Positions 24,282 through 44,580 are shown, counted from the stretch's first letter. The stretch: 64,000 nt of DNA from Brevundimonas sp. (GCA_039207135.1 JBCECL010000004.1:5165-69164), one strand, 5' to 3'. Translations and numbers: made by a program. The notes: generated by a model not told the origin, from the letters alone.

Positions 24282-24328
24282 CGCGGCCGCCCCCGAACGA
24301 GTGACAGTTGACTCGGACTGCGAACAGA

Positions 24329-24359
24329 GTGACGCGGTCCGAATTGCTCCGTTTATAGT
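24329..24359 (+). promoter_or_regulatory. Candidate promoter of the tad operon in a locally AT-richer patch
   Basis: TATAGT at 24354-24359 with a weak -35-like GTGACG about 19 nt upstream. It lies 45 nt upstream of ATG 24404. Sequence inspection only. Confidence 0.25.
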
Positions 24360-24403
24360 TCCAACCGGTCGGATTGACCGGTAGGTACCGAAACGGGGGA
24401 CGA

Positions 24404-25120
24404 ATGACGGCGAACACCGGTACGGCACCCAAGGACGGTGTGACCGAGCGTCGCCGGGCGCGGGAGGCCCGCGGGCTCGCACCCGCAGGCGGTGCAGCGA
24501 CCGATCGACTGCCGAAGGCGCCACGGGAACGTCGTCCGTTGCTGGCCGTGCTGGCCGTGCTGCTCATCGTCGGCGGCGCGGCGATCGCTGGGCTCGTCGC
24601 GCTGCGGCAGGACTCGCGCGTGCCCGTGCTGATGCTGTCGCACGACGTCGCGGCCGGGCAGGCCATCGCGGCCACCGATCTCGTCACGACGCAGGTCGCG
24701 TCCGAGGGCATCACGCTCGTCGCCGCGGAGGACAAGGACCAGGTGGTCGGGAAGTTCGCCCGCGTCGGGCTCGCCCAGGGCCAGCTCCTCGACAGCAAGA
24801 TGCTCACCGACGTCAGCACGCTGCGTGAGGGGTCCGTCGCCGTCGGGGCGGCGCTCGGCGACGGCCGTGTGCCCGCGAGCGGCCTGCAGGCGGGCGACGT
24901 GGTCCAGCTGATCCGGGTCTCCGATGGCGAGGGCGCCGTGCTCGTGCCCGACGCGCTCGTCTCCTCGGTGCACGAAGGGGACTCCTCGAGCCAGGGTGGG
25001 CTCGTCGTGACGTTCATCGTCGACGCGGCCGCCGGGCCCGGTGTGGCCGCCGTCGCGGCTGACGGCTCCCTGGCCGTCGCGCTCGTGACGCGAGGCACGC
25101 CGATCGGTGAGGACGGCTGA
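24404..25120 (+). CDS. cpaB: SAF-domain Flp pilus assembly protein (CpaB/RcpC-like)
   Basis: A basic N-terminus and one TM helix (LLAVLAVLLIVGGAAIAGLVAL), then a SAF-like region (VLMLSHDVAAGQAIAATDL). It is the first gene of the tad operon. Confidence 0.75.
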   Translation: MTANTGTAPKDGVTERRRAREARGLAPAGGAATDRLPKAPRERRPLLAVLAVLLIVGGAAIAGLVALRQDSRVPVLMLSHDVAAGQAIAATDLVTTQVASEGITLVAAEDKDQVVGKFARVGLAQGQLLDSKMLTDVSTLREGSVAVGAALGDGRVPASGLQAGDVVQLIRVSDGEGAVLVPDALVSSVHEGDSSSQGGLVVTFIVDAAAGPGVAAVAADGSLAVALVTRGTPIGEDG

Positions 25121-25121
25121 C

Positions 25122-25904
25122 GTGCTCGTCACGATCGCCTCGGCCAAGGGATCTCCCGGCGTCACGACGACGGCGCGGATCCTCGCCTCCGTGTGGCCGC
25201 AGGACGTCCTGCTCGTCGATGCCGACCCCGCGGGGGGCGACGTGTCCCTGTGGGCGCCGGCCCCCGACGGCAGCCCGCTCGATCCCGACACCGGGCTCCT
25301 GACGCTCGCGGTCGAGGCGCGCCGCGGCGCGGCCTCGCTCGAGCCGCACGTGCAGACGATCGACGGCGGGCTCCAGGTGGTCGCCGGCGTCCAGCACCCG
25401 GGCCAGATCGCGGGCATGGGTCCGGTGTGGCCGGTGCTCGGTGGCGTCCTGCGCCAGCATGCGGGGACCGTGATCGCCGACGTCGGTCGGCTCACCCCGG
25501 ACAGCCCGGTCCTGCCGTTCGTGCTCGACTCCGACGCGCTCGTGTTCGTCGTGCGACCGACGATCGAGGGATACGCGCACCTTCGCGAGCGGCTGAGGTG
25601 GCTCGCGGACCTCGACACCGGCCTGCGCCCGATGCCCACGGTCGGCGTCGTCGCGGTCACGGAGGCGAAGGACACGGCCGCGGTGCGGGATCTGCACCTG
25701 CTGCTCGCGCACGCCGGTCTGAACGTGCCCGTCCTCGGCGCGGTGGGCGTCGACCAGAAGTCGGCGGACGTCGTCGCGGCCCGGGTCGCGCGGGGGATCG
25801 ACCGATCGCTGCTCGTCCGGTCCGCGCGCCAGCTGGTCGGGCCGGTGCGCGAGCTCGCCGAGTCGCGGTTCTACGCGCGATCGATGGCGAAGGAGCTGTC
25901 GTGA
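25122..25904 (+). CDS. TadZ/CpaE-like ParA/MinD-fold protein with a degenerate Walker A
   Basis: VLVTIASAKGSPGVTTTARILA stands in place of KGGxGKT, with no Walker lysine, followed by LLVDADPAGGD. The alternative start is GTG 25107. Confidence 0.7.
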   Translation: MLVTIASAKGSPGVTTTARILASVWPQDVLLVDADPAGGDVSLWAPAPDGSPLDPDTGLLTLAVEARRGAASLEPHVQTIDGGLQVVAGVQHPGQIAGMGPVWPVLGGVLRQHAGTVIADVGRLTPDSPVLPFVLDSDALVFVVRPTIEGYAHLRERLRWLADLDTGLRPMPTVGVVAVTEAKDTAAVRDLHLLLAHAGLNVPVLGAVGVDQKSADVVAARVARGIDRSLLVRSARQLVGPVRELAESRFYARSMAKELS

Positions 25905-27214
25905 GCCTCGACCAGACACTCGTGCGGCGCCTGCGCGAGGAGGTCGCCGACGTCCTCGCGCGCCAGCGCCGCGACGACGCGGCCGCCGGCCTGCCCGCGA
26001 TGTCGGGGGAGGACGAGCGCCAGTTCGCTCGCGCCGTCATCGCGCGCGTGCTCGACTCGCACGCACGCGGCGAGATGGCCAGCGGCAGGACCCCTCCGAC
26101 CCCGCAGGACGAGGAGGAGATCGCCGCCGGGATCCACGCCGCGCTCTACGGCGTCGGCAGGCTGCAGCCGCTGCTGGACGACCCTGACGTCGAGAACGTC
26201 GACATCAACGGCTACGACAACGTGTTCGTGCAGTACGGCGACGGTCGCGAGGAGAGGTGGGCTCCCGTCGCCGAGTCGGACGACGAGCTCGTCGAGCTCG
26301 TCCAGATCCTCGGCGCGTACTCGGGGCTCACGAGTCGCCCGTTCGACTCGGCGAACCCTCAGCTCGACCTGCGCCTGCCCGACGGCAGCCGGCTCTCGGC
26401 CGTGATGGACGTGTGCGCACGCCCGTCGATCTCGATCCGGCGCGCGCGGCTGTCCCGGGTGCACCTCGACGACCTCGTGCGCTTCGGGTCCGTGACGCCC
26501 GACGTCGCGGCGTTCCTGTCGGCGGCCGTCGCCGCGCGCAAGAACATCATGATCGCCGGCGCGACGAACGCCGGGAAGACCACGCTCCTGCGCGCTCTGG
26601 CCAACGAGATCGCACCGTCCGAGCGGCTCATCACCGTCGAGCGCGCGCTCGAGCTCGGCCTGGGCGAGTTCCCCGACCTGCACCCGAACGTGGTCTCGTT
26701 CGAGGAGCGGCTGCCGAACTCGGAGGGCAACGGCGCGATCCAGATGTCCGAGCTCGTGCGCCGCAGCCTGCGGATGAACCCGAGCCGCGTCATCGTCGGC
26801 GAGGTCCTCGGCGACGAGATCGTGACGATGCTGAACGCGATGAGCCAGGGCAACGACGGCTCGCTGTCGACGATCCACGCGAACAGCTCGATCGAGGTGT
26901 TCAACCGCATCTCGACGTACGCGATCCAGTCCGTCGAGCGCCTGCCCGTCGAGGCCACGATGATGCTCATCGCGGGCGCGATCGACTTCGTCGTGTTCGT
27001 CCAGAAGCAGAACGACTACCTGAGCGGCGGCCGGCTGCGGCGCTACGTCGCGAGCATCCGTGAGGTCAACGGCGTCGACGGCCGGGTGCTGTCGAGCGAG
27101 ATCTTCGCGGCCGGCCCTGACGGCGTCGCGGTCGCCGCGGCACCGATCGCCTCGCTCGACGAGCTGATCGCCGTCGGCTACCAGCCGTCGTACGCGCTCG
27201 GGGGCGTCCGATGA
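25901..27214 (+). CDS. tadA: Tad pilus secretion ATPase (CpaF/TadA family)
   Basis: Walker A GATNAGKTTLLRAL, RVIVGEV and His-box SLSTIHANS. A GTGA overlap joins it to the upstream gene. Confidence 0.93.
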   Translation: MSLDQTLVRRLREEVADVLARQRRDDAAAGLPAMSGEDERQFARAVIARVLDSHARGEMASGRTPPTPQDEEEIAAGIHAALYGVGRLQPLLDDPDVENVDINGYDNVFVQYGDGREERWAPVAESDDELVELVQILGAYSGLTSRPFDSANPQLDLRLPDGSRLSAVMDVCARPSISIRRARLSRVHLDDLVRFGSVTPDVAAFLSAAVAARKNIMIAGATNAGKTTLLRALANEIAPSERLITVERALELGLGEFPDLHPNVVSFEERLPNSEGNGAIQMSELVRRSLRMNPSRVIVGEVLGDEIVTMLNAMSQGNDGSLSTIHANSSIEVFNRISTYAIQSVERLPVEATMMLIAGAIDFVVFVQKQNDYLSGGRLRRYVASIREVNGVDGRVLSSEIFAAGPDGVAVAAAPIASLDELIAVGYQPSYALGGVR

Positions 27215-28068
27215 TCCCGGCCTCGACGCTGGTCGTCATCCTGGGCGGCGCCATCGTGGGCGTCGGGATCCTCCTGCTCATGGTCGCGGCGACGGGAACC
27301 GGACGGAGACCGGCGAAGGTCCGGCGGGGCGGTGGCAGCGCAGCGGTGCGCGCGCGGCGACGCTTCCTGATCGCTGCGGGCGTCGGGCTCGTCACGCTCG
27401 TCGTGACCGGGTGGCCGGTGGCCGCCGTCGGTGCCGCCGCCTTCGCGGTGGCCGCCCCCGCGCTCCTGGGCGGGGCCAAGGCCGAACGCCAGCAGACCGC
27501 GCGGCTCGAGGGCCTGGCGTCGTGGACCGAGTCGTTGCGCGACACGATCGCTGGAGCGGTCGGCCTCGAGCAGGCGATCCCGGCGACGGTCTACGCGGCC
27601 GCCCCGGCGATCCAGCCGCAGCTGCGCCTGCTCGTGGACAGGCTGCGCGTGCGGGTGCCGTTGCCCGTGGCGCTGCGCGGGCTCGCGGACGACCTCGACG
27701 ACCCGAGCGCCGACCTCGTGGTCGCGGCGCTCATCCTCAACGCCCGGCTCCGCGGCCCGGGTCTGCGCCAGGTGCTCACGTCGTTGTCGGAGGCTGCGCG
27801 CGCCGAGCTCGAGATGCGGCAGCGAGTCACGGCGGGTCGCAGCTCGACGCGTCGCTCGGCCCAGATCGTCACGGTGTTCTCGCTCGCGGCCATGACCCTG
27901 CTCACGCTCCTCAACCCCGACTACGTCGCGTCGTACGACACACCGCAGGGACAGCTGGTCCTGACGGTGATCGCAGCCCTGTTCGCCGTCGGGTTCTGGT
28001 GGATGAAGCGGCTGTCGGGCGTCGACATGCCGGCGCGGTTCCTCGTGAGCGAGGAGGACGGACGATGA
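27211..28068 (+). CDS. tadB: Type II secretion system F-family platform protein (TadB-like)
   Basis: Polytopic membrane protein with a T2SSF-like helical domain. ATGA overlap. Confidence 0.8.
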   Translation: MIPASTLVVILGGAIVGVGILLLMVAATGTGRRPAKVRRGGGSAAVRARRRFLIAAGVGLVTLVVTGWPVAAVGAAAFAVAAPALLGGAKAERQQTARLEGLASWTESLRDTIAGAVGLEQAIPATVYAAAPAIQPQLRLLVDRLRVRVPLPVALRGLADDLDDPSADLVVAALILNARLRGPGLRQVLTSLSEAARAELEMRQRVTAGRSSTRRSAQIVTVFSLAAMTLLTLLNPDYVASYDTPQGQLVLTVIAALFAVGFWWMKRLSGVDMPARFLVSEEDGR

Positions 28069-28985
28069 TCGTCGCGCTTCTCGCGGGTGCCGTGGCAGGC
28101 GCCGGCGTGCTGATGTTCGTGCTCGTCGTCGCGCCGCCGCGGTCGCAGCCGGGAAATGCCCTCGCGCGCCTGGACGTGCGGCGCGCAGAGGTGCGAGCGC
28201 GCGCCCAACGCATCGCCGTCGACCCGAACCGCACGGTCGAGGCTCCGTGGGTGCGCACGGTCGGCCGGTCGACGGCCGACGCACTCTCGCGTGCCGGCGT
28301 CGAGCTCGGCCAGCTGCGGTCGGACCTGGCGGTCATCGGCCGGACGCTCGAGATGCATCTCGCGACCTCGGTGCTCGCGGCCGTCGTCGGCTTCTTCCTC
28401 CCGCTCGGCTTCGCCGCGGCCGCGGTGCTCGTGGGCGCACCCGTATCGGTCGCCGCGCCGTTCGGGCTGAGCATCCTCGCGGCGGCTGCCGGGGCGTTGC
28501 TCCCCAGCGTCGTCGTCCGGGGCCAGGCGCGTACCGCGCGCCGCGACTTCCGGCACGTCGTCGGGTCGTTCCTCGACCTCGTCGCGATGAGTCTCGCCGG
28601 CGGACGCGGGGTGCCCGAGGCGCTGCAGAGCGCGTCGGAGCTCAGCGACGGCTGGGGCATGGTCCGGATCCGCAACGCGCTGGGCTCGGCCCGCCTGCAC
28701 GGCCGGACGCCGTGGTCGGCCCTCGGGATGCTCGGCGAGGAGCTCCGGATCGACGAGCTCCGCGACCTCGCGGCCGCTCTCGCCCTGGTCGCCGAGGACG
28801 GCGCGAAGGTGCGCGACTCGCTCTCGGCGCGCGCGGGGTCGCTGCGCCGACGCGAGCTCGCGGAGTCCGAGGGGAAGGCGGGCGAGAGCTCGCAGGCGAT
28901 GCTCGTCGCTCAGCTGCTGCTGTGCGTCGGCTTCCTGATCTTCCTGCTCTACCCGGCCATCGAGGCTGTCTTCAAGGGCGTGTAG
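28065..28985 (+). CDS. tadC: Type II secretion system F-family platform protein (TadC-like)
   Basis: Starts MIVALLAGAVAGAGVLMFVLVV. Second T2SSF-like paralogue. ATGA overlap. Confidence 0.8.
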   Translation: MIVALLAGAVAGAGVLMFVLVVAPPRSQPGNALARLDVRRAEVRARAQRIAVDPNRTVEAPWVRTVGRSTADALSRAGVELGQLRSDLAVIGRTLEMHLATSVLAAVVGFFLPLGFAAAAVLVGAPVSVAAPFGLSILAAAAGALLPSVVVRGQARTARRDFRHVVGSFLDLVAMSLAGGRGVPEALQSASELSDGWGMVRIRNALGSARLHGRTPWSALGMLGEELRIDELRDLAAALALVAEDGAKVRDSLSARAGSLRRRELAESEGKAGESSQAMLVAQLLLCVGFLIFLLYPAIEAVFKGV

Positions 28986-29036
28986 TCGTCGGACACGCTC
29001 CCGCACCGATCCCGTTCACACCAAGAAGGGCACCAC

Positions 29037-29279
29037 ATGTTCTCTCTGTCGCCACTCACACCGCAGGGGTTCCTGGTCATGGAGCTGCGGCGGCGCTACT
29101 CGCGCGCGCTCAGCACCAGCGACCGGGGTGCGTCGGCGATCGAATGGGTCATCATCACGGGCATCCTCGTGGCGATGGCCGCGGCCGTCGGGCTGATCAT
29201 CTACAACGTCGTCCGGGACAAGGCGAACAACATCAACACCCCCGAGGACCCGACGGGCATCAAGGGCGGCGGCGCCTGA
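29037..29279 (+). CDS. flp: Flp-family (type IVc) prepilin
   Basis: The processing-site-like sequence DRG|ASAIEWVIITGILVAMAAAVGLIIY has Glu at +5 and an aromatic residue at +6. The start is ATG 29037 or ATG 29079. Confidence 0.75.
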   Translation: MFSLSPLTPQGFLVMELRRRYSRALSTSDRGASAIEWVIITGILVAMAAAVGLIIYNVVRDKANNINTPEDPTGIKGGGA

Positions 29280-29281
29280 CC

Positions 29282-29707
29282 ATGAACCCGCTGCACCGGC
29301 GACTGCGGCGCGCATCCGGCGACCGCGACGCCGGTGCGTCCTCGGTCGAGCTCGTCCTGTACGCACCCCTGCTCATGCTGATCACGTTCCTGCTCGTGCA
29401 GTTCTCCTTGAGCTGGTACGGCACGTCGGTCGCCGGCGCAGCCGCTCGCGAGGCGGCCCGGGTGGCGCGCAACGGTGGGGGTGCGCCGGCGGCGCTGGAG
29501 CTGGCAGAGCAGCGCGCCCGTGACTACGCGGCGTCGGTGGGGGGTCCCCAGGGGCTGACCGACGTTTCGGTGTCGGTCGTCGCGATCGACGGTGACAGGG
29601 TGCGGGCGACCGTCTCCGGGCACGCGATGGAGATCGTCGGCGGGCTTGCGCCGCGCGTGTCCTCGACGGTCGAGGGCCCGGTCGAGAAGTTCAGGCCGGA
29701 CCGATGA
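29282..29707 (+). CDS. tadE: TadE-like pseudopilin
   Basis: Contains DAGASSVELVLYAPLLMLITFLLVQFSL, then AREAARVA. Confidence 0.8.
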   Translation: MNPLHRRLRRASGDRDAGASSVELVLYAPLLMLITFLLVQFSLSWYGTSVAGAAAREAARVARNGGGAPAALELAEQRARDYAASVGGPQGLTDVSVSVVAIDGDRVRATVSGHAMEIVGGLAPRVSSTVEGPVEKFRPDR

Positions 29708-30126
29708 CGCGCCGCCCCAGCGGAGAGGCGGGCTCGATGGCGGTGGAGATCGTCATCCTCGTGCCTGTGCTCCTTCTCCTGCTCTCGCTCATCGTCGCGA
29801 TGGGACGCTTCGTCACGACCCAGGGCGACGTCCAGGCCGCCGCGCGCGAGTCGGTGCGCGCGGCCACCTTGGCCCGGGACGTGGCCTCGGCGAGGGTGGC
29901 CGCGCAGGAGGCGGCGACGGCGTCCCTTCCCGCCGACGCCGACTGCAGGAACGTCGAGCTCAGCGGCGACTTCACGGCCGGTTCGACGCTCACGGTCACG
30001 TTGCGGTGCGACGTCTCCTGGAAGAACCTCAGCGAGCTCGGTCTGGGCGCCTCGACGACGATCACCGAGAAGAGCTCGGCGCCGCTCGACCGGTTCCGCC
30101 GCACCAGCCCGGGAGGATCGCCGTGA
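29704..30126 (+). CDS. TadE/TadF-like pseudopilin
   Basis: Contains EAGSMAVEIVILVPVLLLLLSLIV. ATGA overlap. Confidence 0.78.
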   Translation: MTRRPSGEAGSMAVEIVILVPVLLLLLSLIVAMGRFVTTQGDVQAAARESVRAATLARDVASARVAAQEAATASLPADADCRNVELSGDFTAGSTLTVTLRCDVSWKNLSELGLGASTTITEKSSAPLDRFRRTSPGGSP

Positions 30127-30578
30127 TCCGGCGGATGCGCGCCGCGACCGCCCAGGAGGAGCGCGGCTCGGTCTCGGTGTTCGTCATCGGTCTGGCCGTC
30201 GCGCTGCTCGTCCTGGCGGGCCTCGTGGTGGACGGCGGACGTGCGGTCAACGCACGGGCGGCGGCGTACGACGACGCCGAGCAGGCCGCCCGGGCGGGGG
30301 CCAACGAGATCGACGTGCTCAGGCTCCGCAACACAGGTCAGGTGGTCATCGATGCGGACGCGGCGACACGCGCGGTCGACGCCTTCCTGGCGGCGCGTGA
30401 CTATCCCGCCGGCTCGGCGGTGACAGTGGTCGGGGCGCGCGAGGTCCGCGTGAAGCTGGACGGCGACGTCAACACGTCGCTCCTGACCCTGATCAACATC
30501 GACTCATTCCACGTGACCGCGACTGCGACCGCACGGGCCGCCATCGGGATCGACGCCGAGATCGGAGGTGCACCGTGA
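30123..30578 (+). CDS. TadG-related (Tad_N-like) pilus assembly protein
   Basis: Contains ERGSVSVFVIGLAVALLVLAGLVVDGGRAVNARAAAYDDAEQAARAGA. GTGA overlap. Confidence 0.72.
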   Translation: MIRRMRAATAQEERGSVSVFVIGLAVALLVLAGLVVDGGRAVNARAAAYDDAEQAARAGANEIDVLRLRNTGQVVIDADAATRAVDAFLAARDYPAGSAVTVVGAREVRVKLDGDVNTSLLTLINIDSFHVTATATARAAIGIDAEIGGAP

Positions 30579-33403
30579 GTGCACAGACGCGAGACACGCA
30601 CGCCGAGGGCGCCGAGCTGCCCGAGAGGGGGCCCGAGCGCTTCCAGCGCGCGAGCGCAGAGCAGGAGCCGCCGCACTCGCGATGGAGCAGCATCGGCGCG
30701 CTGCTGGTGCTCCTCGTGCTCGTCGTCGGCGTGCCCTTCGCGCTCGTGCGCCTCGGCGGCGGTCTGCACGTCCCGACCTCGCTGCCGAGCCGCGAGGACC
30801 TGACGGGAGCCGTCGGCATCGACCAGGTCGTCACGTTGCTGACCTGGATCGTCTGGCTCGCGTGGCTGCAGTTCACGATCTGCGTGGCCGTCGAGCTGCG
30901 CTCCGCGATCCGCGGCGTCGGCATGCCCGCACGCGTGCCGCTGGCCGGGCCGAGCCAGCGGGCCGCGCGCACGCTGGTCGCGGCCGTCCTGCTGCTCGTC
31001 ACGTTCGCCGGGCAGGCGAATGCGGTCACCACGACCGTCGAGCACGCCGGATCGGTCCCCGTGGCCGCGGTGGCGTCGTCCGTCCCGGGCGCCGCCGCGG
31101 TGTCCGCCGAGGCGCCCGCCCAGGAGCACACCGACGAGGGACGGAAGGTCTACCACCTCGGTGACATCGAGCTCGACGAGGACGAAGGGCGCGAGCTGGT
31201 CGGCAAGCTGGTCGCGGTCGTCACGCCGCCGGAGGGCCGGTACCACGACAACCTCTGGGACATCGCGGAACGGCACATGGGCGACGGGCGCCGCTACCAC
31301 GACATCTTCGAGCTCAACAAGGGGCGCGACCAGCCCGACGGGCAGGAGCTCACGCTCGCCCGGCTCATCCAGCCGGGCTGGCTGCTCGTCATGCCCGAGG
31401 ACGCGGCGGGGGTCGAACGGGTGACCGTGACCGTCGTGGCGCCGGTCGCGGAGGAAGCGCCGGTGCTGCCCGTCGACCCGCCGGCCGCCTTGTCCAAGGC
31501 GCCGTCGCAGGCCTCCGAGCCGGCCGTCGCCGCGCCAGCCACGAAGGCGGTCGACGACGCGCAGAGCCTCGTCGGCTCGGGTCTCCTGGCCGCGGGGCTG
31601 CTGGCGGCAGTCGTCGCGCTGCGGAGGCGGCGTCGCACGCCGGCGCCCGGCGACGACGCGGTCGAGATGGAGGTCGCGCTGCGGGTCGGTGCCGACCCAG
31701 AGCGCGCCCGCCGGCTCGACGCAGGACTGCGCGAGCTGTCCGCGCTGCGCTCAGCCGCGGGGCTCGAGCTCCCCGCGGTCTACGCGGCGAGCATCGACGA
31801 CTCACGGCTCACGGTGCACCTCGCGCCCGCCGACCCGAACGCGCCTGCGCCCTGGCGCGCGAGCGATGACGGTCGGCAGTGGCACCGCACCGCGGAGCTC
31901 GACCGGCGCGCGCCCTCGGACGTGCCCGCTCCCTACCCGGGCCTGGTCTCGCTGGGTCGCGGCTCCGACGAGGCCGACGTGCTCATCGACCTCGAGGCGG
32001 CGCAGGGCACGATCTGCATCGCGGGCGACGAAGCCGTCGCGCGCGAGGTGGCCGCGGCGATCGCCGCCGAGCTCGTCACCAACACGTGGTCCGACGCGCT
32101 GCGCGTCACCGGCGTCGACCTCCCCGACGCGTTGTCGGAGATCGGCGGCGAGCGTTACCGCCGCGTCGCGGCCATCGAGGACGGACTTCCGGAGGTGACG
32201 GCCCGGCAGGCCGACGTGCTCGGCACGAACGTCCTCGCGGGCAGGTCGCGCGGCTTGCGCTCGACTCCCGAGTACATCGTCGCCGGCACCGCGCCCTCCG
32301 AAGACTCCGCACGGCGGCTCGCCGAGCTCGCGGCCGACGGGGGTCGCGCGCCGTGGGGCGCCGTCGTCGTCGGCGACGTCCCGGGGGCGCGCTGGCGGAT
32401 CGAGGTGGACTCCGACGGTGCGCTCAGCATCGGCCTGCTCGGCCTGCGCGTCACCGCCAACCGGTTGTCGGCACGTCGCGTCGCCGCGCTCGGCGAGCTC
32501 CTTGCGCCGCCGGAGCCGGACGCGCTGCTCGACCGCGCCGGGAGCGTGGACCTCGAGGGGCACCTGGAACGGCCCGAGCTGCCCGAGCCGCCGCCGACGT
32601 CACGCGCGCTGGGCGTCGCGGACCTCTGGGCCGCACCCGTGCGGGTGCTCGTGCTCGGCAGCCCGCGGGTCGAGGCCGAGGGTCCGATCGACGACGACCG
32701 CCGCGCGCTGTGCACCGAGCTCGTCGTCCACCTCGCGCTGCACCCGGAGGGCGTCCACCCGACCGTGCTCGGTGCGGCGGTATGGCCCCGCGGGGTGACG
32801 ACGGCGGTGCTGAACGCGACTGTGGCTCGGGCTCGCGAGTGGCTCGGCAAGGACGCGCACGGTGCGCCCCACCTGCGGCACACGATGGACGGGAACCTCG
32901 TCCTGGGTGCGCGCGTGGTGCTCGACTGGGACGTCGTGCGGGCGCTCCTGGTGGCGTCGCGGAGCGGTGCGACGCCGGCCGAGGAGCGCGAGCTCTTGCG
33001 CGAGGCGCTCGCGATCGTGCGCGGTGCGACGCTCGAGGACGCTCCGTCCGGGCGCTACTCCTGGCTCGCTCGCGCGCGCCTGGAGCGCGACGCGAGGGCC
33101 CTGCTCGTGGACGCCGCACACCGCCTCGCGGTGCTGTGCCTCGACGACGACCCGGCGGGGGCCAGGGCGGCCGTCACCGCAGGTCTGCGCGTCGCCCCGG
33201 TCGACGAGCTGCTCTGGCGCGACCTGCTGCGGACGGTGTCGCTCGAGTCGGGGCCGGAGGGCGTGCGAGCTGCGGCCGACGAGCTGCAGCGCGAGCTGCG
33301 CGAGGCGGGCATCACCGAGGTCCCCGCCCAGACGGCGGCGCTCCTCGAAGAGCTCGCGCCGTCGGCCGACCCCGGCCGCGCTGGCCGCGGGAGGGGCGCG
33401 TGA
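30575..33403 (+). CDS. Polytopic membrane protein with a LysM domain and a C-terminal SARP-type wHTH + BTAD module
   Basis: 942 aa. Three N-terminal TM helices are followed by a LysM-like segment (YHDNLWDIAERHMGDGRRYHDIFELNKGRDQPDG..LIQPGWLLVMP). A fourth TM helix plus RRRRR follows, then a roughly 300-aa cytoplasmic domain. The C-terminus holds a SARP wHTH (VRVLVLGSPRVEAEG..VHLALHPEGVH..AVWPRG..ARAREWLG) and BTAD (LDWDVVRALL..LREALAIVRGATLED..ELLWRDLLRT). A GTGA overlap joins it to the last tad gene. Confidence 0.75.
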   Translation: MSAQTRDTHAEGAELPERGPERFQRASAEQEPPHSRWSSIGALLVLLVLVVGVPFALVRLGGGLHVPTSLPSREDLTGAVGIDQVVTLLTWIVWLAWLQFTICVAVELRSAIRGVGMPARVPLAGPSQRAARTLVAAVLLLVTFAGQANAVTTTVEHAGSVPVAAVASSVPGAAAVSAEAPAQEHTDEGRKVYHLGDIELDEDEGRELVGKLVAVVTPPEGRYHDNLWDIAERHMGDGRRYHDIFELNKGRDQPDGQELTLARLIQPGWLLVMPEDAAGVERVTVTVVAPVAEEAPVLPVDPPAALSKAPSQASEPAVAAPATKAVDDAQSLVGSGLLAAGLLAAVVALRRRRRTPAPGDDAVEMEVALRVGADPERARRLDAGLRELSALRSAAGLELPAVYAASIDDSRLTVHLAPADPNAPAPWRASDDGRQWHRTAELDRRAPSDVPAPYPGLVSLGRGSDEADVLIDLEAAQGTICIAGDEAVAREVAAAIAAELVTNTWSDALRVTGVDLPDALSEIGGERYRRVAAIEDGLPEVTARQADVLGTNVLAGRSRGLRSTPEYIVAGTAPSEDSARRLAELAADGGRAPWGAVVVGDVPGARWRIEVDSDGALSIGLLGLRVTANRLSARRVAALGELLAPPEPDALLDRAGSVDLEGHLERPELPEPPPTSRALGVADLWAAPVRVLVLGSPRVEAEGPIDDDRRALCTELVVHLALHPEGVHPTVLGAAVWPRGVTTAVLNATVARAREWLGKDAHGAPHLRHTMDGNLVLGARVVLDWDVVRALLVASRSGATPAEERELLREALAIVRGATLEDAPSGRYSWLARARLERDARALLVDAAHRLAVLCLDDDPAGARAAVTAGLRVAPVDELLWRDLLRTVSLESGPEGVRAAADELQRELREAGITEVPAQTAALLEELAPSADPGRAGRGRGA

Positions 33404-33415
33404 GGCGTCCATACG

Positions 33416-33462
33416 ACGGGCAAACGGCCGCAAGGCTGTCCGAAACCCGATAGTTTGCCCGT
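33416..33462 (+). promoter_or_regulatory. 10-bp perfect inverted repeat overlapping a -10-like element upstream of the WXG100 gene
   Basis: ACGGGCAAAC (33416-33425) pairs with GTTTGCCCGT (33453-33462). TAGTTT at 33451-33456 fits the TANNNT pattern. Hexamers GCAAAC, GCAAGG and CGAAAC sit at 33420, 33430 and 33441, spaced 10-11 nt apart. Confidence 0.35.
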
Positions 33463-33508
33463 GTGTGGCGGCGTCATGGGGGCGCCGCACGATCAGAAGG
33501 AGAAGTCC

Positions 33509-33781
33509 GTGGCCGTCGGTGCAGAGCTCAGTACCCTCCAGTCCCTTCACAAGACGTTCGAGGCCAAGGCCGACGAGGCGCAGGAGATCAAGGCGAAGGT
33601 CGACTCCGCTCTTCAGAGCGCCGTCTGGACGGGCAAGTACTCGGAAGACTTCAGGTCTGCCTGGAACGAGTACCGCGCGAACCTCGACAAGCTGCGCGAG
33701 GCGCTCGACGGTGCCGCGAGCGACGTCAAGACGAACCACAACAACATCGCCGCCGCGACGGGCGAGAGCGACCGCATCTGA
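33509..33781 (+). CDS. WXG100-family (ESAT-6-like) protein
   Basis: 90 aa from GTG 33509, preceded by an AAGGAG RBS. It is predicted to be helical, with a central W-T-G motif (SAVWTGKYSEDFRSAW). Confidence 0.8.
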   Translation: MAVGAELSTLQSLHKTFEAKADEAQEIKAKVDSALQSAVWTGKYSEDFRSAWNEYRANLDKLREALDGAASDVKTNHNNIAAATGESDRI

Positions 33782-33884: not shown

Positions 33885-36800
33885 GTGCGTCTGATCCTCA
33901 GCGTCGCCGTACCGGGCGAAGCGGCGCCCGTCGACGTCGTCGCGGAGTGTGCACCCGGTGCGCGTGTCGCGGACCTCGGCGTGGCGCTCGGCGCGGCGCT
34001 GCGGTTCGAGCAGCACAGCGTGGTGCCACGAGGCTCGGGACATCTCGGCGTCGTCGAGGTGACACGCGCCGAGCACGGCGCCACGCTGCCGCTGTGGTGG
34101 CGGGGCACGGAGCTGGAGCCCGAGCAGCCCTTGGAGGCCAGCCCCCTGCGGCAGGGGCACCTGGTCGGCTTGGGGCAGCCGGCCGCTGACCTGTGGGACG
34201 AGCCGTTCGGTGCATGCGAGGTGCGCGTCGTCTCCGGCCGGGGTGCCGGGCGTGTGCACCGGCTCAGCCCGGGCCGGCACGAGGTCGGACGCTCGCGGGC
34301 CGCGTCGGTCCGGCTCGAGGACGGACCCGAGCGCGCGCTGGTCCTGGACGTGGGCGTCGACGGCTCGGTGACCGTGACCGTCGAGCCCGAGGTCGCGGCG
34401 CTGACCGTCCCCGCTCCGCGGCGACTGCGGCCGCTCGACGGCCCGATCGTCGTGCCCGGGGAGCCAGCGCGGGCGGACCGGGCCGGGGGGCGGCGGTACT
34501 CGACGCGCCTGGCCCGCGCGCGCAGCGCGAGCGCCGGCATGCAGGAGATCGATCCCGAGGACGACCGCCCGCTCGTGCACCTCGACCGTGCAGCGGTCCT
34601 GGCCCCCCGTCGGTGGGTGGCGGGGGAGTCGCTCGTCGTCGGCGACACGGTGCTCGAGCTCGCCGAGCTCACCGCACCCGACGCCTCGCTCTCGCCGAGC
34701 GCCGAAGGCGCCACGCTCGACTTCAACCGCCCACCTCGACTGCTCCCGCCGGTGCGGACGAGCGAGTACCGGCTGCCCGCCGAGCCGAGGACGCCCGACC
34801 GGCAGTCCTTCCCGCTCGCGATGGTGCTCCTGCCCGTCATCATGGGCGGCGCGATGTACTGGTTCACGCGGTCGCCGTACTCGCTCATCATCATGGCCCT
34901 GTCGCCGGCGATGGGGATCTCGAACTGGGTCTCGTCGCGCAAGTCGCGTCGGGGGCAGCACGTCGAGGCGGTGCGGACGTTCGCCGAGCGGACAGCGCGC
35001 GTCGAGGCCGACGCGTACGCGGCGCTCACCAGCGAGAGCGCAGCGCGGCGGCGCGAGCTGCCCGACCCCGCGAGCGTCCTGCTGTTCGCGACCGGCCCCC
35101 GGGCGCGGCTGTGGGAGCGGCGACGCACCGACCCGGACTGGCTGCTGGCTCGCGTCGGCACGGCCGACGTCGCGAGCGAGGTCTCCTTGCGCGACCCGTC
35201 GCGCGAGGACCACGAGCGCGTCCAGCACTGGACGGCGGCGGACGTCCCCGTCGCGGTGCCGTTGGCCCAGGTCGGTGTCACGGGGGTCGCGGGGAGCGAC
35301 GACGAGCGTCGACGACTGGCGGGGTGGATGGTCGCGCAGGTGGCCGCGTCGCACTCTCCGGCGGACGTCTCGGTGGTGCTCCTCGCCGAGCCCGGGGGCG
35401 CCGCGGACTGGCGCTGGGTGCGCTGGCTGCCTCATCTGCGACGCGATGCCGGGCCGCTCGTCTCGGTCGGCAACGACGACGAGACCACCGCTCGCCGCGT
35501 CGCCGAGCTGCTCGACCTGGTCGAGCGCCGCCGAGCCGCGTCGCGGTCCGACCAGGGCTTCTCGAGCGCGTCGCTCGTCCTCCCGCCTCCGGTCCTCGTC
35601 GTCCTCGACGGTGCGCGTCGCATCCGCATGCTTCCCGGGCTCGTGACGCTCCTGCGCGAGGGTCCGGCCGTCGGCGTCCTGTTCCTGTGCCTCGACGAGC
35701 AGGAGCGTCAGCTGCCCGAGGAGTGCCGTGCCGTCGTCCGGCTCGACGCGGGCGGCGCGGTGGTCACGGTCGCGGGTCGCGACGCGGTCGAGGGCGTGCG
35801 CGCCGACCTGGTCGACCCGGGCTGGCTCGAGCGGATGGCCAGGGCGGTGGCCCCGATCCGCGACATCAGCAGCGAGGACCTGACGTCGACGGTCCCGACG
35901 ACGTCGCGGCTGCTCGACGTGCTGCAGCTGGACCCGCCGCGCGCCGACGCGGTCGCGCAGGTCTGGGCTCGGGGCGGCCGCACGACGAAGGCGGTCATCG
36001 GCGAGACCGGCGACGGGTTGTTCACGGTCGACGTCAGCGCGGACGGCCCCCACGGGCTCGTCGCGGGGACCACCGGCTCCGGCAAGTCGGAGCTCCTGCA
36101 GACGTTGATCGCGTCGCTCGCGGTCGGCAACCGGCCGGACGAGATGACCTTCGTGCTGGTCGACTACAAGGGCGGCGCGGCGTTCAAGGACTGCAACAAC
36201 CTGCCGCACACGGTCGGCATGGTCACCGACCTGGACACGCACCTGACGACTCGCGCGCTCGAGAGCCTCGCGGCCGAGCTCCGCCGCCGCGAGCACCAGC
36301 TCGCGGCCGCGGGCGCGAAGGACATCGGCGACTACCTCGCGGCGCGTGGACCCGGCGACGAGCCGATGCCCCGCCTGCTGATCGTCATCGACGAGTTCGC
36401 CGCGCTGGTCGCCGAGCTGCCCGACTTCGTCACGGGCCTGGTCGACATCGCCCGCCGAGGTCGGTCGCTCGGCGTGCACCTGCTGCTGGCGACGCAGCGG
36501 CCGGCAGGTGTGGTCAGCGCCGAGATCAAGTCGAACACGAACCTGCGCATCGCCCTGCGGGTCACCGACCGCAACGACAGCCAGGACGTCATCGAGGGGC
36601 CCGAGGCCGCCGAGATCGCGCAGAGCCTGCCGGGTCGCGCGTACGCCCGGCTCGGCCACTCGAGCCTCGTCGCCTTCCAGGCGTCTCGGGTCGGAGGCCG
36701 TCCGCCGGCGGCCACGCGCGGCGGGCAGGTGTCGGTCGCACCCCTCGGCTGGGACGTGCTCGGGCGGCCGCTGCCCGGCCGGCGCGCCGCGGGAGAGGAC

Positions 36801-38492
36801 GACATCGACACCCCCACGGATCTGGCCTCGCTGGTCGCCGCGGTGCGAGACGCCGCGTCCCTCGCGAGCGTCGCGGCGCCGCCGCCGCCGTGGCTGCCCG
36901 CGCTGCCGCCGGTGGTCACGCTCGCGGGTCTCGCGGAGGCCGCTCGGCGCGAGCTGCCGGCCTCGCCCTTCGCGCTCCCGTACGGGCTGCTCGACCTGCC
37001 CTCGCAGCAGCGCCGTGACATCGCGGTGCACGACATCGAGCGTGCCGGCCACCTCGCGGTGCTCGGAGCGGCGCGCTCCGGTCGCTCGACGGTGCTGAGA
37101 ACCCTCGCGGCCGCAGTGGGCGAGCGGCTCTCGCCGCGCGACGTCCACCTGTACGGGGTGGACTGCGGGAACAACGCACTCCTCCCGCTCGTCGGCCTGC
37201 CGCACACCGGCGCCGTCGTGACGCGCGACCAGCCCGAGCGGCTCGCGCGCCTGACGCGCCGCCTGCGCGCCGAGATCTCGCGTCGCCAGCGCCTGCTCGC
37301 CGAGCAGTCGTACGCGGACGTGACCGAGCAGCGGGCGAGCGTCGCTCGCGACGACCGGCTGCCCTACATCGTCGTGCTCCTCGACCGCTGGGAGGGCTTC
37401 GTCCAGGCGTTCGAGGACTACGACCAGGGCGTGCTGCTCGACCTGTGGACGCAGATCCTGCAGGAGGGACCGGGCGCCGGCGTGAAGGTCGTGCTGAGCG
37501 GCGACCGCAGCCTGACCGTCGGACGGATCTCGACGCTGACGGAGAACCGGCTCATGCTGCGCATGTCCGACCCAGGTGACTACTCGGCCGTGGGCATGAC
37601 ACCGCGCCAGGTGCCCGGCGTGATCGGCGACGGGCGCGGGTTCCGTTCGCAGTCGTCGCAGGAGGTCCAGGTCTGCCTCCTGGACGAGGCGCCGGGCGGC
37701 GCGGAGCAGGTCGCGGCGCTCCAGCGCATCGCGCGCGACGCGACCGACCGCGCCGAGCGTGACGGTGACGCTCCTGAGCAGCAGGTGCCGTTCCGGGTCG
37801 ACGACCTGCCGGCCCAGATCACGCTGGCGCGAGCCCTGGCCCTCGGGCCTCGCGCGCTCGCGCGCTCCGCCGTGCCCGCGGGGGTGGGCGGCGACAGCCT
37901 GACCCTGTTCGGCTTCGAGGCCGAGGAGCACGGACCCGGCGTCCTCGTGGTCGGTCCTCGTCGCTCGGGACGCAGCACGGCTCTGATGACGATGGCGACG
38001 TCGGCGCTCGAGCGCGGCTGGGCGGTCGGCACCGTGACGCCTCGGCGAAGCCCGCTGCGCGACCTCGCGGGCTCCGCCGGGCTCGTCGGGGACCTCACGC
38101 TCGAGTCGTCTCGCGACGAGATCCGCGCTCTGCTCGCGGAGCTCGAACCCACCGCGAGCCGCCCGACGCTCCTCGTCGTGGACGACCTCGAGCTGCTGGG
38201 CACGGACAGCAACGCCGCGGAGGCGATCGTGGAGCACCTCGCGACCCTGAGGGACCGTCCGGGCCTCGTCGTGGCCGGCGGGACCACGGACGAGCTGTCG
38301 GGCTCGTACCGCGGCCCGGCTCCCGCGCTGAAGAAGTCCCGCAGCGGGCTCTTGCTGTGCCCAGCCTCGCCGAACGACGGCGACGTGTTCGGCTTGCGGC
38401 TGCCGCGATCGGTCATCGGGGGATCGATGCCGGGTCGCGGGATCGTGTCGCTGGGCGGGCAGTGGCAGAGCGTGCAGGTGCCCGTGCCATGA
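33885..38492 (+). CDS. Type VII secretion FtsK/SpoIIIE-family ATPase (EssC/EccC-like) with an N-terminal FHA-like region
   Basis: 1535 aa from GTG 33885 with an AGGAGGA RBS. The N-terminal soluble region includes EVRVVSGRGAGRVHRLSPGRHEVGRSRAASVRLED. Two TM helices follow (FPLAMVLLPVIMGGAMYWF, YSLIIMALSPAMGISNWV), then three P-loop domains with Walker A GTTGSGKSE, GAARSGRST and GPRRSGRST. Confidence 0.88.
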   Translation: MRLILSVAVPGEAAPVDVVAECAPGARVADLGVALGAALRFEQHSVVPRGSGHLGVVEVTRAEHGATLPLWWRGTELEPEQPLEASPLRQGHLVGLGQPAADLWDEPFGACEVRVVSGRGAGRVHRLSPGRHEVGRSRAASVRLEDGPERALVLDVGVDGSVTVTVEPEVAALTVPAPRRLRPLDGPIVVPGEPARADRAGGRRYSTRLARARSASAGMQEIDPEDDRPLVHLDRAAVLAPRRWVAGESLVVGDTVLELAELTAPDASLSPSAEGATLDFNRPPRLLPPVRTSEYRLPAEPRTPDRQSFPLAMVLLPVIMGGAMYWFTRSPYSLIIMALSPAMGISNWVSSRKSRRGQHVEAVRTFAERTARVEADAYAALTSESAARRRELPDPASVLLFATGPRARLWERRRTDPDWLLARVGTADVASEVSLRDPSREDHERVQHWTAADVPVAVPLAQVGVTGVAGSDDERRRLAGWMVAQVAASHSPADVSVVLLAEPGGAADWRWVRWLPHLRRDAGPLVSVGNDDETTARRVAELLDLVERRRAASRSDQGFSSASLVLPPPVLVVLDGARRIRMLPGLVTLLREGPAVGVLFLCLDEQERQLPEECRAVVRLDAGGAVVTVAGRDAVEGVRADLVDPGWLERMARAVAPIRDISSEDLTSTVPTTSRLLDVLQLDPPRADAVAQVWARGGRTTKAVIGETGDGLFTVDVSADGPHGLVAGTTGSGKSELLQTLIASLAVGNRPDEMTFVLVDYKGGAAFKDCNNLPHTVGMVTDLDTHLTTRALESLAAELRRREHQLAAAGAKDIGDYLAARGPGDEPMPRLLIVIDEFAALVAELPDFVTGLVDIARRGRSLGVHLLLATQRPAGVVSAEIKSNTNLRIALRVTDRNDSQDVIEGPEAAEIAQSLPGRAYARLGHSSLVAFQASRVGGRPPAATRGGQVSVAPLGWDVLGRPLPGRRAAGEDDIDTPTDLASLVAAVRDAASLASVAAPPPPWLPALPPVVTLAGLAEAARRELPASPFALPYGLLDLPSQQRRDIAVHDIERAGHLAVLGAARSGRSTVLRTLAAAVGERLSPRDVHLYGVDCGNNALLPLVGLPHTGAVVTRDQPERLARLTRRLRAEISRRQRLLAEQSYADVTEQRASVARDDRLPYIVVLLDRWEGFVQAFEDYDQGVLLDLWTQILQEGPGAGVKVVLSGDRSLTVGRISTLTENRLMLRMSDPGDYSAVGMTPRQVPGVIGDGRGFRSQSSQEVQVCLLDEAPGGAEQVAALQRIARDATDRAERDGDAPEQQVPFRVDDLPAQITLARALALGPRALARSAVPAGVGGDSLTLFGFEAEEHGPGVLVVGPRRSGRSTALMTMATSALERGWAVGTVTPRRSPLRDLAGSAGLVGDLTLESSRDEIRALLAELEPTASRPTLLVVDDLELLGTDSNAAEAIVEHLATLRDRPGLVVAGGTTDELSGSYRGPAPALKKSRSGLLLCPASPNDGDVFGLRLPRSVIGGSMPGRGIVSLGGQWQSVQVPVP

Positions 38493-38865: not shown

Positions 38866-40968
38866 GTGGCGATGGCCAAGATCGACGTCGTCGGCATGGG
38901 ACGGCTGGTGAGCGGGCTCGAGGACGGCATCGAGACGCTCGACACCGCGCGCGCCGACCTGCGCGGCACGCTCGCGCACTTCTACCTCGACACGGGTCGC
39001 AGCGCCGCGCTGCGGGGACCCGCCGACTGGGCGCGCGACGAGCTCCCGGCTGCCCGTCGTCGCCTCGCGCTCGCGCAGGCGCTCGAGGGCTCGGACCCGT
39101 CGTGGGAGAAGGGCAAGGTCGCGCTCGACGACGTCACGGACATCACGTCGATGGACCCGGACAAGGCGCAGCAGGCCGGGCAGGAGGCCGCGCAGGCGCT
39201 GCGCGACGGCGGGAAGCCCGACGCCGACCTCATCGACCAGATCGTCGAGATGCAGAACGACCCGTACTTCGCCGCGGGTTTCGCGAGTGCGCTCGGCGCG
39301 GACGAGCTCGCCGACGTGGTCGTCAAGCTCTCCTACAACCGGACCTTCCAGGACGGCTCGCACACGCAGGCGCAGCTCGACGCCGCCAACGCCTGGTACG
39401 GCAAGCTCCTGGTCGGCATGTCGACGACGGTGGCCACCGCCACGCGGTCGACGGGTGACCTTGCACTCCCGCCGGGCTACGCCCAGGGCTGGATCGACCA
39501 GATCACCGCCGAGGTGCCGACCTCGCCCTACTACGACGGCGGGGACGGCCGACCGGACCGTGCCAACGCGCTGACGGTGCTGCTGAACTCCGGCCGCTAC
39601 GGCGATGCGTTCCTCGGCCAGATCTCGACCCAGGTCTACGACTACGAGCGCAAGGTCGGTGACGAGCGCGGCAAGGTGTGGGAGCCCCGCGGCAGCGACC
39701 TGACGAGCCCGTTCGGCGTGTACGACGCCCAGGGCCTGCGGTTCCGTGACCCGATGACCGGCGTCATGAACGCCCTCGGCCACAACCCGCAGGCGGCGCA
39801 GTCGTTCCTCGACGGTGGACCTACCCGCACCGTCAAGATCGACGGGCACGACGTCCGGGTCTCCGACCGCCTGGCCTACCTCGTGATCGACCGTCGGTGG
39901 GACATCGACAACACCAACGGCGGCGCGCTCGGGTCGGCCCTCGAGGCGGCCACCACGAAGCTGCGCGACAGCGGACCGGCGGGCCAGGTCTCGGCGGATC
40001 TCGCGTCGCAGACCTTCGCGCTGATCGGGAACAAGACCGGCGAGGGCAAGTCCGGCGGCTTCCTCGGCATCGGTGCTGACGACGGCTGGAAGATGTGGGA
40101 CGGCCTGCGCCCTCACGTCTCGCAGATGCTGGCGTCCTACGGCGCCGACGCCTACCGCGTGATCGCCACCGACGACGACGACCTGACCCAGGGCTGGTCC
40201 GCGCCGGGCAGCGGCCAGCTCTTCGGCGACGACATGCCGTACGGCGCCGTGCTGGACAAGGCACTCCTGGCCAAGATCGTGGGGACGCTCGGCGAGAACC
40301 AGGACGACCTCACGCCGTTCCTGACCGGGCTGTTCCAGGCGCAGAACCTGGCGGTCGGCAAGGGGCTGACCGACGCGCTGAGCGACCAGCCGAACGCCGC
40401 GGCGAACTTCATCACGGGCGGCACGAGCGACGACTCGAACTCCTCGATCACCAACTCCTCCGAGGTCATCGGGTGGGCGCTGGACACGGCGTACTCCGGC
40501 GACAAGGCAGACGAGGAGATGCAGAAGAAGCGGGCCGAGGCGATCGCCGACGCCCTGAGCCTCGCGTCGAGCCTTCCCTTCGTGCCCGAGATCAAGCCGC
40601 AGTGGCTCGCGTGGGGCGCGGACCAGCTCAAGGACAAGACCCTCGACGAGATCCGCAACAGCGCCTCGTCCGACTCGGGCAAGACGTACACGGAGCTCAA
40701 CGCGGACGTCCAGGAGCGGCTCGAGGACGCCACGATGAACCAGCTCCTGCGCAGCGGCTACTTCAGCGACGACGCGGTCCGCCGCGCGGCCGACAAGGGC
40801 TTCACGTTCCGCCCGCCGCCGGCGGACGCGATCGACCCCGGGCCGCCGCCGCAGTTCCGCACGGACTCGTCGGCGTACGTCGACTGGTACAGCACGTCGG
40901 CGCTCAAGTCGATCGTCGCGGAGAAGGTGGTCGGGACGTATCGCGACCAGTGGGGTCTGCCGCTGTGA
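38866..40968 (+). CDS. Large soluble hypothetical protein, candidate T7SS substrate with an LXG-like N-terminus
   Basis: 700 aa with no signal peptide or TM helix. The N-terminus is MAKIDVVGMGRLVSGLEDGIETLDTARADLRGTLAHFY. I recognised no catalytic motif in the rest of the protein. Confidence 0.6.
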   Translation: MAMAKIDVVGMGRLVSGLEDGIETLDTARADLRGTLAHFYLDTGRSAALRGPADWARDELPAARRRLALAQALEGSDPSWEKGKVALDDVTDITSMDPDKAQQAGQEAAQALRDGGKPDADLIDQIVEMQNDPYFAAGFASALGADELADVVVKLSYNRTFQDGSHTQAQLDAANAWYGKLLVGMSTTVATATRSTGDLALPPGYAQGWIDQITAEVPTSPYYDGGDGRPDRANALTVLLNSGRYGDAFLGQISTQVYDYERKVGDERGKVWEPRGSDLTSPFGVYDAQGLRFRDPMTGVMNALGHNPQAAQSFLDGGPTRTVKIDGHDVRVSDRLAYLVIDRRWDIDNTNGGALGSALEAATTKLRDSGPAGQVSADLASQTFALIGNKTGEGKSGGFLGIGADDGWKMWDGLRPHVSQMLASYGADAYRVIATDDDDLTQGWSAPGSGQLFGDDMPYGAVLDKALLAKIVGTLGENQDDLTPFLTGLFQAQNLAVGKGLTDALSDQPNAAANFITGGTSDDSNSSITNSSEVIGWALDTAYSGDKADEEMQKKRAEAIADALSLASSLPFVPEIKPQWLAWGADQLKDKTLDEIRNSASSDSGKTYTELNADVQERLEDATMNQLLRSGYFSDDAVRRAADKGFTFRPPPADAIDPGPPPQFRTDSSAYVDWYSTSALKSIVAEKVVGTYRDQWGLPL

Positions 40969-44475: not shown

Positions 44476-44580
44476 GGCGCCAGCGTGCGACATGCCCGTG
44501 GCTGCCGTCGACCGCCCGGTCACGGACCGGCGGCGACTAGGATCATGCCTGCCCCAAGCCTCTGACCGAAGGACTTCGCT

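Follow-up and report, generated by a model that had tools for sequence, protein, structure and literature searches.

Soluble SARPs are known, as are OmpR-type activators bound to the membrane, pilus hubs anchored by LysM, and degenerate EccC domains. In the SARPs, which include EmbR, the DnrI/ActII-ORF4 type, and the SARP module of AfsR, the chain runs from an OmpR-type winged helix into a BTAD domain, and in ToxR, CadC, and TcpP, the last of which is encoded beside a type IVb pilus cluster, one chain carries an extracytoplasmic domain and a cytoplasmic winged helix across the membrane. The present analysis concerns a stretch of 64,000 nucleotides filed under Brevundimonas sp. (GCA_039207135.1, JBCECL010000004.1:5165-69164; hereafter the window), in which the last gene of a Tad pilus operon encodes a protein with four predicted transmembrane helices, an outer LysM-like domain, a cytoplasmic FtsK-like pseudo-ATPase domain, and a SARP-like C-terminus. 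With a confidence that stops a little short of even, this protein is read as a SARP-type transcription factor that is tethered to the membrane and belongs to the Tad operon of many Actinomycetota. The combination of these parts in one conserved Tad operon protein is new, as is the so far unannotated pseudo-ATPase domain; the LysM and BTAD parts are already on record, both in database annotation and in one table published in 2013 (PMC3666418).

The closest working analogies may be ToxR, TcpP, and CadC, whose arrangement of outer domain and inner winged helix in a single membrane-spanning chain is predicted for this protein as well. The order is reversed, however, with the putative sensor N-terminal and the putative DNA-binding part C-terminal, four helices take the place of one, the BTAD and pseudo-ATPase domains are additional, and homology is confined to the winged-helix fold. 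In comparison with the SARPs, the same succession of winged helix and BTAD covers the full AfsR SARP chain, but the module stands at the C-terminus and is held to the membrane by a four-helix domain, and it is preceded by a pseudo-ATPase where the known proteins carry NOD/TPR or FHA domains after theirs. The gene also lies in a pilus operon and not in an antibiotic cluster, its winged helix is undetectable by sequence, and no direct-repeat target was found for it.

Domain architecture

The C-terminal assignment comes from a comparison of structures. An AlphaFold2 model of the whole protein, built on 118 homologues (predicted local distance difference test, pLDDT, 83.6; predicted template modelling score, pTM, 0.70), retrieved AfsR SARP modules as the top Foldseek matches (E 1e-7, TM-score 0.62 on a 254-residue chain, 24% identity, 265 columns) and EmbR next, and the AfsR SARP chains and EmbR aligned over 255-265 columns corresponding to residues 686-932. 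Weaker matches of the winged helix were to MtrA, KdpE, and RegX3. In the helix that occupies the position of the recognition helix (residues 743-757), V745, R752, W756, L757, and G758 are invariant among the 118 members, while 99 of them retain R746 and 98 retain R754. The BTAD half can be approached by sequence as well, since Pfam BTAD (PF03704, cut-off 22.1 bits) scores 10.8 bits (E 0.64) on the whole protein and 18.1 bits on the C-terminal fragment, 25 of 40 homologues match it at E up to 0.05 (best 7e-7), and several distant relatives pass its threshold. As modelled, the C-terminus is a complete winged-helix and BTAD module like those of AfsR and EmbR, the winged helix being recognized by structure only.

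Four hydrophobic helices are indicated by Kyte-Doolittle peaks at residues 40-58, 83-106, 130-150, and 331-349 and lie at residues 36-59, 82-112, 124-150, and 337-352 in the model. The loop at 108-133 contains five arginines and no acidic residue, the segment 150-335 contains 14 basic and 31 acidic residues, and the sequence RRRRR follows directly after the fourth helix. From this charge bias and the hydropathy, the N-terminus is placed inside, the LysM-like segment outside, and everything from residue 350 onward inside. The three N-terminal helices are strongly conserved, with W97, F100, and E107 invariant.

The outer segment is LysM-like by fold and signature, although by the Pfam rule it is not a member of the family. 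Pfam LysM (PF01476) scores 12.4 bits against a cut-off of 20.9 (E 0.16) on the same residues as the other LysM matches and finds none of 40 homologues at E up to 0.05. With NCBIfam PRK11198, the LysM part matches residues 225-249 of the window protein (E 9e-4) and 33 of the 40 homologues, and a profile of the ectodomain matches a solved LysM protein at E 8e-4, or at E 0.07 when the profile of the whole protein is used. The model contains a beta-alpha-alpha-beta core (strand 212-215, helices 227-235 and 238-248, strand 270-273; pLDDT 84-97) between disordered linkers rich in alanine and proline (148-187 and 291-326). The LysM call is made because the three weak sequence matches are concordant and agree with this core, and the domain is predicted to bind peptidoglycan outside the cell.

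Between the fourth helix and the winged helix lies a domain that matches no family in Pfam or NCBIfam. Modelled separately (residues 356-685; pLDDT 88, pTM 0.84), it retrieved FtsK, the TcpA coupling protein, EccC, EssC, the Bacillus subtilis core unit of T7SSb (a subtype of type VII secretion system, T7SS), and EccCb1-D2 in Foldseek (E 3e-6 to 2e-3, probability 1.0, TM-score up to 0.50), and with the full model the FtsK motor domains, EccC, EssC, and the membrane-proximal part of ESX-3 ranked after AfsR and EmbR. It resembles these proteins in its RecA-like core with an N-terminal alpha/beta subdomain and in following directly after transmembrane helices, as the EccC DUF does, but it is a single domain where they have three or four, it shows no profile-level similarity to them, and it has neither Walker motif. 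A Walker A GK[ST] is present in none of the 118 family members, the equivalent loop being a conserved G484-D-P-x-V-A-x-E, and Walker B is missing in all 118, the strand ending in G571. The domain is therefore classed as a pseudo-ATPase and not as a member of the FtsK/HerA-type ATPases, and sequence and model predict that it would be unable to bind or hydrolyse ATP in the canonical manner. A common origin with the EssC-like protein encoded nearby was considered and rejected: hmmsearch of the middle domain against that protein gave no match, and hhalign against its DUF, D1, D2, and D3 domains gave nothing significant, the best value being E 0.065 with the DUF.

An earlier note on this DNA, made from the sequence alone, had proposed three transmembrane helices, an outer LysM-like segment, a fourth helix with RRRRR, an FtsK/EccC-like fold lacking its P-loop, and a complete SARP-like C-terminus. 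The topology agrees with hydropathy, charge bias, and the AlphaFold2 model, and the outer position of the LysM segment stands with it, the Pfam LysM score falling below threshold and the NCBIfam and profile matches giving support; the fold without a P-loop is confirmed by Foldseek and the missing GK[ST], and the winged helix with BTAD by the superposition on AfsR and EmbR.

A conserved last gene of a Tad operon

The gene is an uninterrupted open reading frame on the plus strand at 30575-33403 (942 codons, 942 amino acids). The window has a G+C content of 70-75%, and from ~30570 to 33400 the G+C fraction at third codon positions is 0.85-0.98 in a single frame, so that the frame plot shows one real gene and not a chance reading frame. 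The GTG start at 30575, with GGAGG 6 nt on its 5' side, overlaps the TGA stop (30576-30578) of the TadG-like gene in the sequence GTGA (30575-30578). An identical protein is filed in NCBI under the name hypothetical protein.

Relatives are numerous. A search of 8,000 scored candidates gave 958 at E up to 1e-3, the closest from Cellulomonas (70-78% identity), followed by Jiangella, Phytoactinopolyspora, Kribbella, and others, and their database names vary among hypothetical, LysM-domain, and BTAD-domain proteins. The middle domain alone gave 1,084 clusters at 50% identity (E up to 0.001), or 609 at E up to 1e-10. Among 141 further representatives the parts usually run in the order N-terminal membrane region, LysM, middle domain, winged helix, and BTAD; variants lack the LysM part or have ~300 more residues after the middle domain and ahead of the winged helix, and the winged helix and BTAD are always present alongside the middle domain. 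The added ~300 residues, seen for example in the distant relatives P0175, P0210, P0150, P0158, P0226, and P0227, may make up another ATPase-like domain that has diverged further. A few distant relatives show no N-terminal membrane part.

Synteny was examined in 80 loci fetched out of 194 relatives in species-representative genomes. In 78 of the 80 loci, from Cellulomonas, Jiangella, Kribbella, Nocardioides, Aeromicrobium, and Actinomyces, the gene comes immediately after tadG; in the other two the fetched sequence begins at the gene itself, so that the upstream genes fall outside the sequence covered. The full order cpaB-tadZ-tadA-tadB-tadC-flp-tadE-tadE-tadG is found in 73-78 of the 80 loci, and the junction with tadG is a 4-nt overlap in 37 of 78 and a 1-nt overlap in 6 more. 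In nearly all family members, co-translation of the gene with those for the minor pilins is predicted. In the window, a weakly matching ParA/CbiA-like gene occupies the TadZ position, TadA/CpaF is of the T2SSE family, TadB and TadC are of the T2SSF family, the Flp-like product has 80 residues, and the TadG-like gene carries the Pfam Tad (TadE/G-like) domain. The protein is thus the standard conserved last gene of one actinobacterial Tad operon type. The earlier note had read it as the last, translationally coupled tad gene and as a fusion at the junction with the next module; the first part, including the 942-residue frame and its GTGA start, is upheld by translation, frame plot, junction sequence, and synteny, and the second gives way to a conserved family that is not a one-off fusion.

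Family members also occur on actinobacterial plasmids, and one holds the same position, with a 4-nt overlap, on the Tad plasmid of Cutibacterium acnes. PAGK_2369, of the C. acnes plasmid Tad locus, was tabulated in 2013 with LysM and BTAD domains and labelled TadB (PMC3666418); it is a member of this family in the same place after a TadG-related gene, but it has 1037 residues, and only its middle domain aligns by tblastn (34% identity). The literature yielded no functional study of any family member, only this table entry and general papers on Tad and T7SS. In the published description of the Mycobacterium tuberculosis flp operon, seven genes are given, none of them for a protein of this kind (PMC9531140). 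Actinobacterial Tad machines therefore do not all include it, which suggests that the protein is accessory rather than a core part of their assembly.

Table 1. Features of the gene and of its surroundings in the window (residue numbers refer to the 942-residue protein).
Feature	Coordinates	Strand	Evidence
Whole gene, 942 residues, GTG start overlapping the TadG-like stop	30575..33403	+	Open reading frame listing, translation, frame plot, NCBI identity
Predicted N-terminal cytoplasmic tail, residues 1-35, invariant R22-F23 motif	30575..30679	+	Invariant alignment columns; low pLDDT
Three predicted transmembrane helices (residues 36-59, 82-112, 124-150) with Arg-rich cytoplasmic loop 108-133	30680..31024	+	Hydropathy, model, conservation
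Predicted extracytoplasmic LysM-like domain, residues 188-290	31136..31444	+	NCBIfam, Pfam, profile matches, model
Predicted fourth transmembrane helix, then RRRRR, residues 328-354	31556..31636	+	Hydropathy, model
Predicted cytoplasmic FtsK/EccC/EssC-like pseudo-ATPase domain, residues 356-655	31640..32539	+	Model, Foldseek, motif columns
Winged helix-turn-helix of the SARP-like module, residues 686-796 (as modelled)	32630..32962	+	Foldseek, conserved columns
BTAD (TPR-like) half of the SARP-like module, residues 797-932	32963..33370	+	Pfam, Foldseek, profile search
Tad operon: cpaB (SAF), tadZ-like, tadA (T2SSE), tadB, tadC, flp-like, tadE, tadE, tadG-like	24374..30578	+	Pfam, frame plot, synteny
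WXG100 gene, 105 nt downstream of the gene under study, own AAGGAG	33509..33781	+	Pfam, sequence
EssC/EccC-like FtsK-family ATPase gene, start approximate	33891..38492	+	Pfam, motif scan
DUF6571 protein, 700 residues, downstream of the EssC-like gene	38866-40968		Recurs near the T7SS-like module in 28/80 loci

Regulator or machine part

A regulator is favoured because the SARP module is complete and because the residues of the helix at the recognition position are invariant or nearly so; the ToxR-like one-component transmembrane regulator that the earlier note had proposed fits such an architecture. Under this reading, the outer LysM-like domain and the conserved membrane helices would report on the condition of the envelope or pilus machine, candidate signals being the local cell wall, the membrane pool of pilins and pseudopilins, and the assembly of the machine. 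The pseudo-ATPase would respond by a change of oligomeric state or of partner, two or more SARP modules would be positioned on promoter DNA near the membrane, and the outcome would be activation of the tad genes (autoregulation), perhaps also of the adjacent WXG100/EssC-like genes where these are present.

Several observations count against a regulator. The winged helix was undetected by sequence, with no match to Trans_reg_C in Pfam and none in the Protein Data Bank (PDB) by phmmer or profile search. Of the winged helix and BTAD, for both of which the earlier note had called for profile searches, BTAD emerges below threshold in this protein and above it in several distant relatives, and the winged helix does not emerge. 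BTAD is itself TPR-like and could serve protein binding only. Direct repeats are the binding sites of AfsR-type SARPs, and no family-wide repeats of that type were found in the candidate promoter regions; repeats at 10-12 nt spacing in the spacer between tadC and flp reach a mean best match of 5.19 out of 7, as against 4.80 in shuffled sequence, and are not enriched across the family. The conserved upstream elements that were found are palindromes or are clade-specific. Finally, close coupling of translation with structural genes, and such strong conservation of the membrane helices, would be expected of a machine component more than of a regulator, and the fixed place of the gene among the structural genes suits such a component equally well.

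The strongest alternative is one that we regard as rather unlikely but worth careful weighing: the protein may be a structural hub of the Tad machine similar to FimV/HubP or ExeA/GspA, with LysM on peptidoglycan, the helices in contact with TadB/TadC or the pilins, the pseudo-ATPase and BTAD recruiting TadZ/TadA, and the SARP fold used for protein contacts. Such a role would suit a gene that always stands last in a structural operon, is often translationally coupled, and has invariant residues in its membrane segment. It would also suit the BTAD half, which by sequence is seen mainly as TPR (phmmer of the C-terminus against PDB gave no match, and a C-terminal profile found only designed and natural TPR proteins there, not AfsR or EmbR), and the missing family-wide SARP-type repeats. 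In one account of FimV/HubP (PMC12918733), the same succession of LysM outside, membrane anchor, and cytoplasmic TPR-type domain is linked to type IV pili. FimV, however, has one transmembrane helix, a cytoplasmic region that is long and acidic, and a specific FimV motif at its C-terminus, with no winged helix and no ATPase-like fold, in contrast to the four helices, pseudo-ATPase, and SARP-like module predicted here; no sequence relation was seen, and the Pfam and NCBIfam scans of the protein found no FimV-type family. Against a hub also stand the retention of a full winged helix with invariant arginine and hydrophobic positions, the superposition of the whole module on DNA-binding SARPs, and the M. 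tuberculosis Tad operon, which does without the gene, so that it is no universal assembly part. The tethered regulator is kept as the preferred reading.

An extended form of the regulator is doubtful, and is accordingly put forward with reserve. The protein might be a wall-anchored sensor that links the Tad and T7SS-like gene sets and would account for their repeated occurrence next to each other in Gram-positive bacteria; in it the helices would monitor the pilin pool or pilus activity, a ring-forming pseudo-ATPase would bring the tethered SARP modules to bind promoters, and pilus contact would switch on both the pilus genes and WXG100/EssC secretion. A release of the regulator from the membrane is very unlikely. 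It would require that a cell-wall signal trigger proteolysis in the disordered linker 656-685 and free a soluble SARP; pLDDT does dip at 650-680, a low-confidence linker separates the middle domain from the winged helix, and the length of this region is highly variable in some relatives, with inserts of ~300 residues, but no protease gene or cleavage motif was found in the conserved neighbourhood, and the overall pTM of 0.70 speaks against it, though this score does not settle the mutual packing of the domains.

The neighbouring WXG100/EssC-like module

The WXG100/ATPase module that the earlier note had placed next door stands: the gene is followed in the window by a WXG100 gene and an FtsK/SpoIIIE-family gene for an EssC/EccC-like protein of 1,533 residues (Table 1). 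The EssC/EccC-like protein has two transmembrane helices near residues 307-345, one canonical Walker A (GTTGSGKS at residue 726), and a further two domains that are P-loop-like, the final one of which also matches nSTAND NTPase models; Pfam reported no FHA domain in it. The DUF6571 protein downstream may be a T7SS substrate or component. A scan of 33300-33600 for terminators and promoters found nothing.

Across the 80 loci an FtsK-like gene lies within 10 kb of the gene in 69, and its position and strand vary by clade: Cellulomonas, Jiangella, and Actinomyces have it downstream, in Kribbella and Nocardioides it stands upstream of cpaB, and the loci that lack it within 10 kb include one from Sanguibacter (L032), where AspRS comes directly after the gene, and one from Kribbella (L031). 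The WXG100 gene always adjoins the tad unit, with Cellulomonas and Jiangella having it just downstream of the gene and some Kribbella, as well as Actinomyces, having it divergent from cpaB, a placement that fits shared control. Because the tad linkage is seen in 78 of 80 loci while the module shifts its position or is absent, Tad is the obligatory partner, and the EssC-like/WXG100 module is a usual neighbour that is sometimes absent. In Bacillota, two T7SS subtypes always adjoin Tad genes, and common regulation has been raised by Garrett et al. (PMC11217815).

The weakest reading, and a highly improbable one, makes the protein a T7SS accessory subunit whose degenerate FtsK-like domain co-assembles with the EssC-like ATPase, as the EccC DUF does, and couples secretion to the Tad pilus: the fold does resemble EccC/EssC domains, including the ESX-3 membrane-proximal part and the B. 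subtilis T7SSb core unit and DUF, and an FtsK-like gene is usually near, but that gene switches side and strand between clades and is absent within 10 kb in L031 and L032, while the tad linkage is complete, and with neither hmmsearch nor hhalign joining the two proteins, the docking on the T7SS ATPase that the earlier note had suggested is weakened.

The tad operon of the window lies between HisRS (22902-24281) and AspRS (44566-46350), and the same two synthetase genes flank tad and the family gene in Sanguibacter L032, with no T7SS-like module. Because that locus keeps the synthetases without the module, the ~11 kb from the gene to AspRS in the window look like an insertion or a lineage-specific addition. 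The nearest relatives are all from Cellulomonas, although the metagenome-assembled genome that holds the identical NCBI protein is labelled Brevundimonas sp., and the WXG100/EssC system has been described only from the Gram-positive phyla Actinomycetota and Bacillota (PMC11217815). In view of these relatives, the WXG100/EssC genes, and a G+C content of 70-75%, the contig is probably mis-binned.

Candidate promoter elements

Conserved sequence upstream of the operon differs from clade to clade. In the window, TATAGT (24354-24359) is conserved upstream of cpaB, and a CGGAC ... GTCCGA footprint precedes it in the five closest Cellulomonas loci; TATAGTCGTG, in the 24300-24360 region, is kept by other Cellulomonas species, and this region is likely the promoter region of the tad operon. 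In seven Kribbella loci (L028, L029, L035, L037, L038, L039, and L045), a palindrome, TTGCAG-N4-6-(C/G)TGCAA, is found upstream of cpaB, ~100-300 nt before the start of the cpaB match and sometimes in a divergent spacer common with a WXG100 gene; it looks like the operator of some dimeric regulator. Nocardioides-type loci (L044, L046, L049, L051-L054, L062, and L066) have CGGGGAT directly repeated at a 12-nt period immediately past the tadC stop, and this repeat can also form a short hairpin. Similarly, CCGAACC repeats with a 10-11 nt period occur in the tadC-flp spacer of Jiangella loci (L016-L019 and L027). Perfect repeats in this spacer are found in only a few clades (Nocardioides and Jiangella) and are clade-specific. 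The TATAGT/CGGAC-GTCCG element, the Kribbella palindrome, and the tadC-flp repeats were each considered as SARP boxes, and none could be assigned to the protein.

Meaning for actinobacterial Tad pili

We know of nothing reported on the control of these Tad operons or on the anchoring of their machines in a thick wall. The Tad pili of Actinomycetota are important for colonization and for the uptake of DNA, and they are a mark of C. acnes plasmids associated with disease. The protein described here is the one conserved non-canonical gene product of this Tad operon type and a candidate for the link behind the co-location of Tad and T7SS genes in Actinomycetota, and its FtsK-like pseudo-ATPase domain, unannotated so far, deserves a family definition. 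Should the protein prove to be a scaffold, Gram-positive bacteria would have in it an equivalent of FimV or ExeA, made by putting a transcription-factor fold to new use. As a regulator, it would be the first SARP tethered to the membrane and would offer a route from the state of the envelope or pilus to transcription; as it stands, the protein probably links the pilus or the cell wall to gene control.

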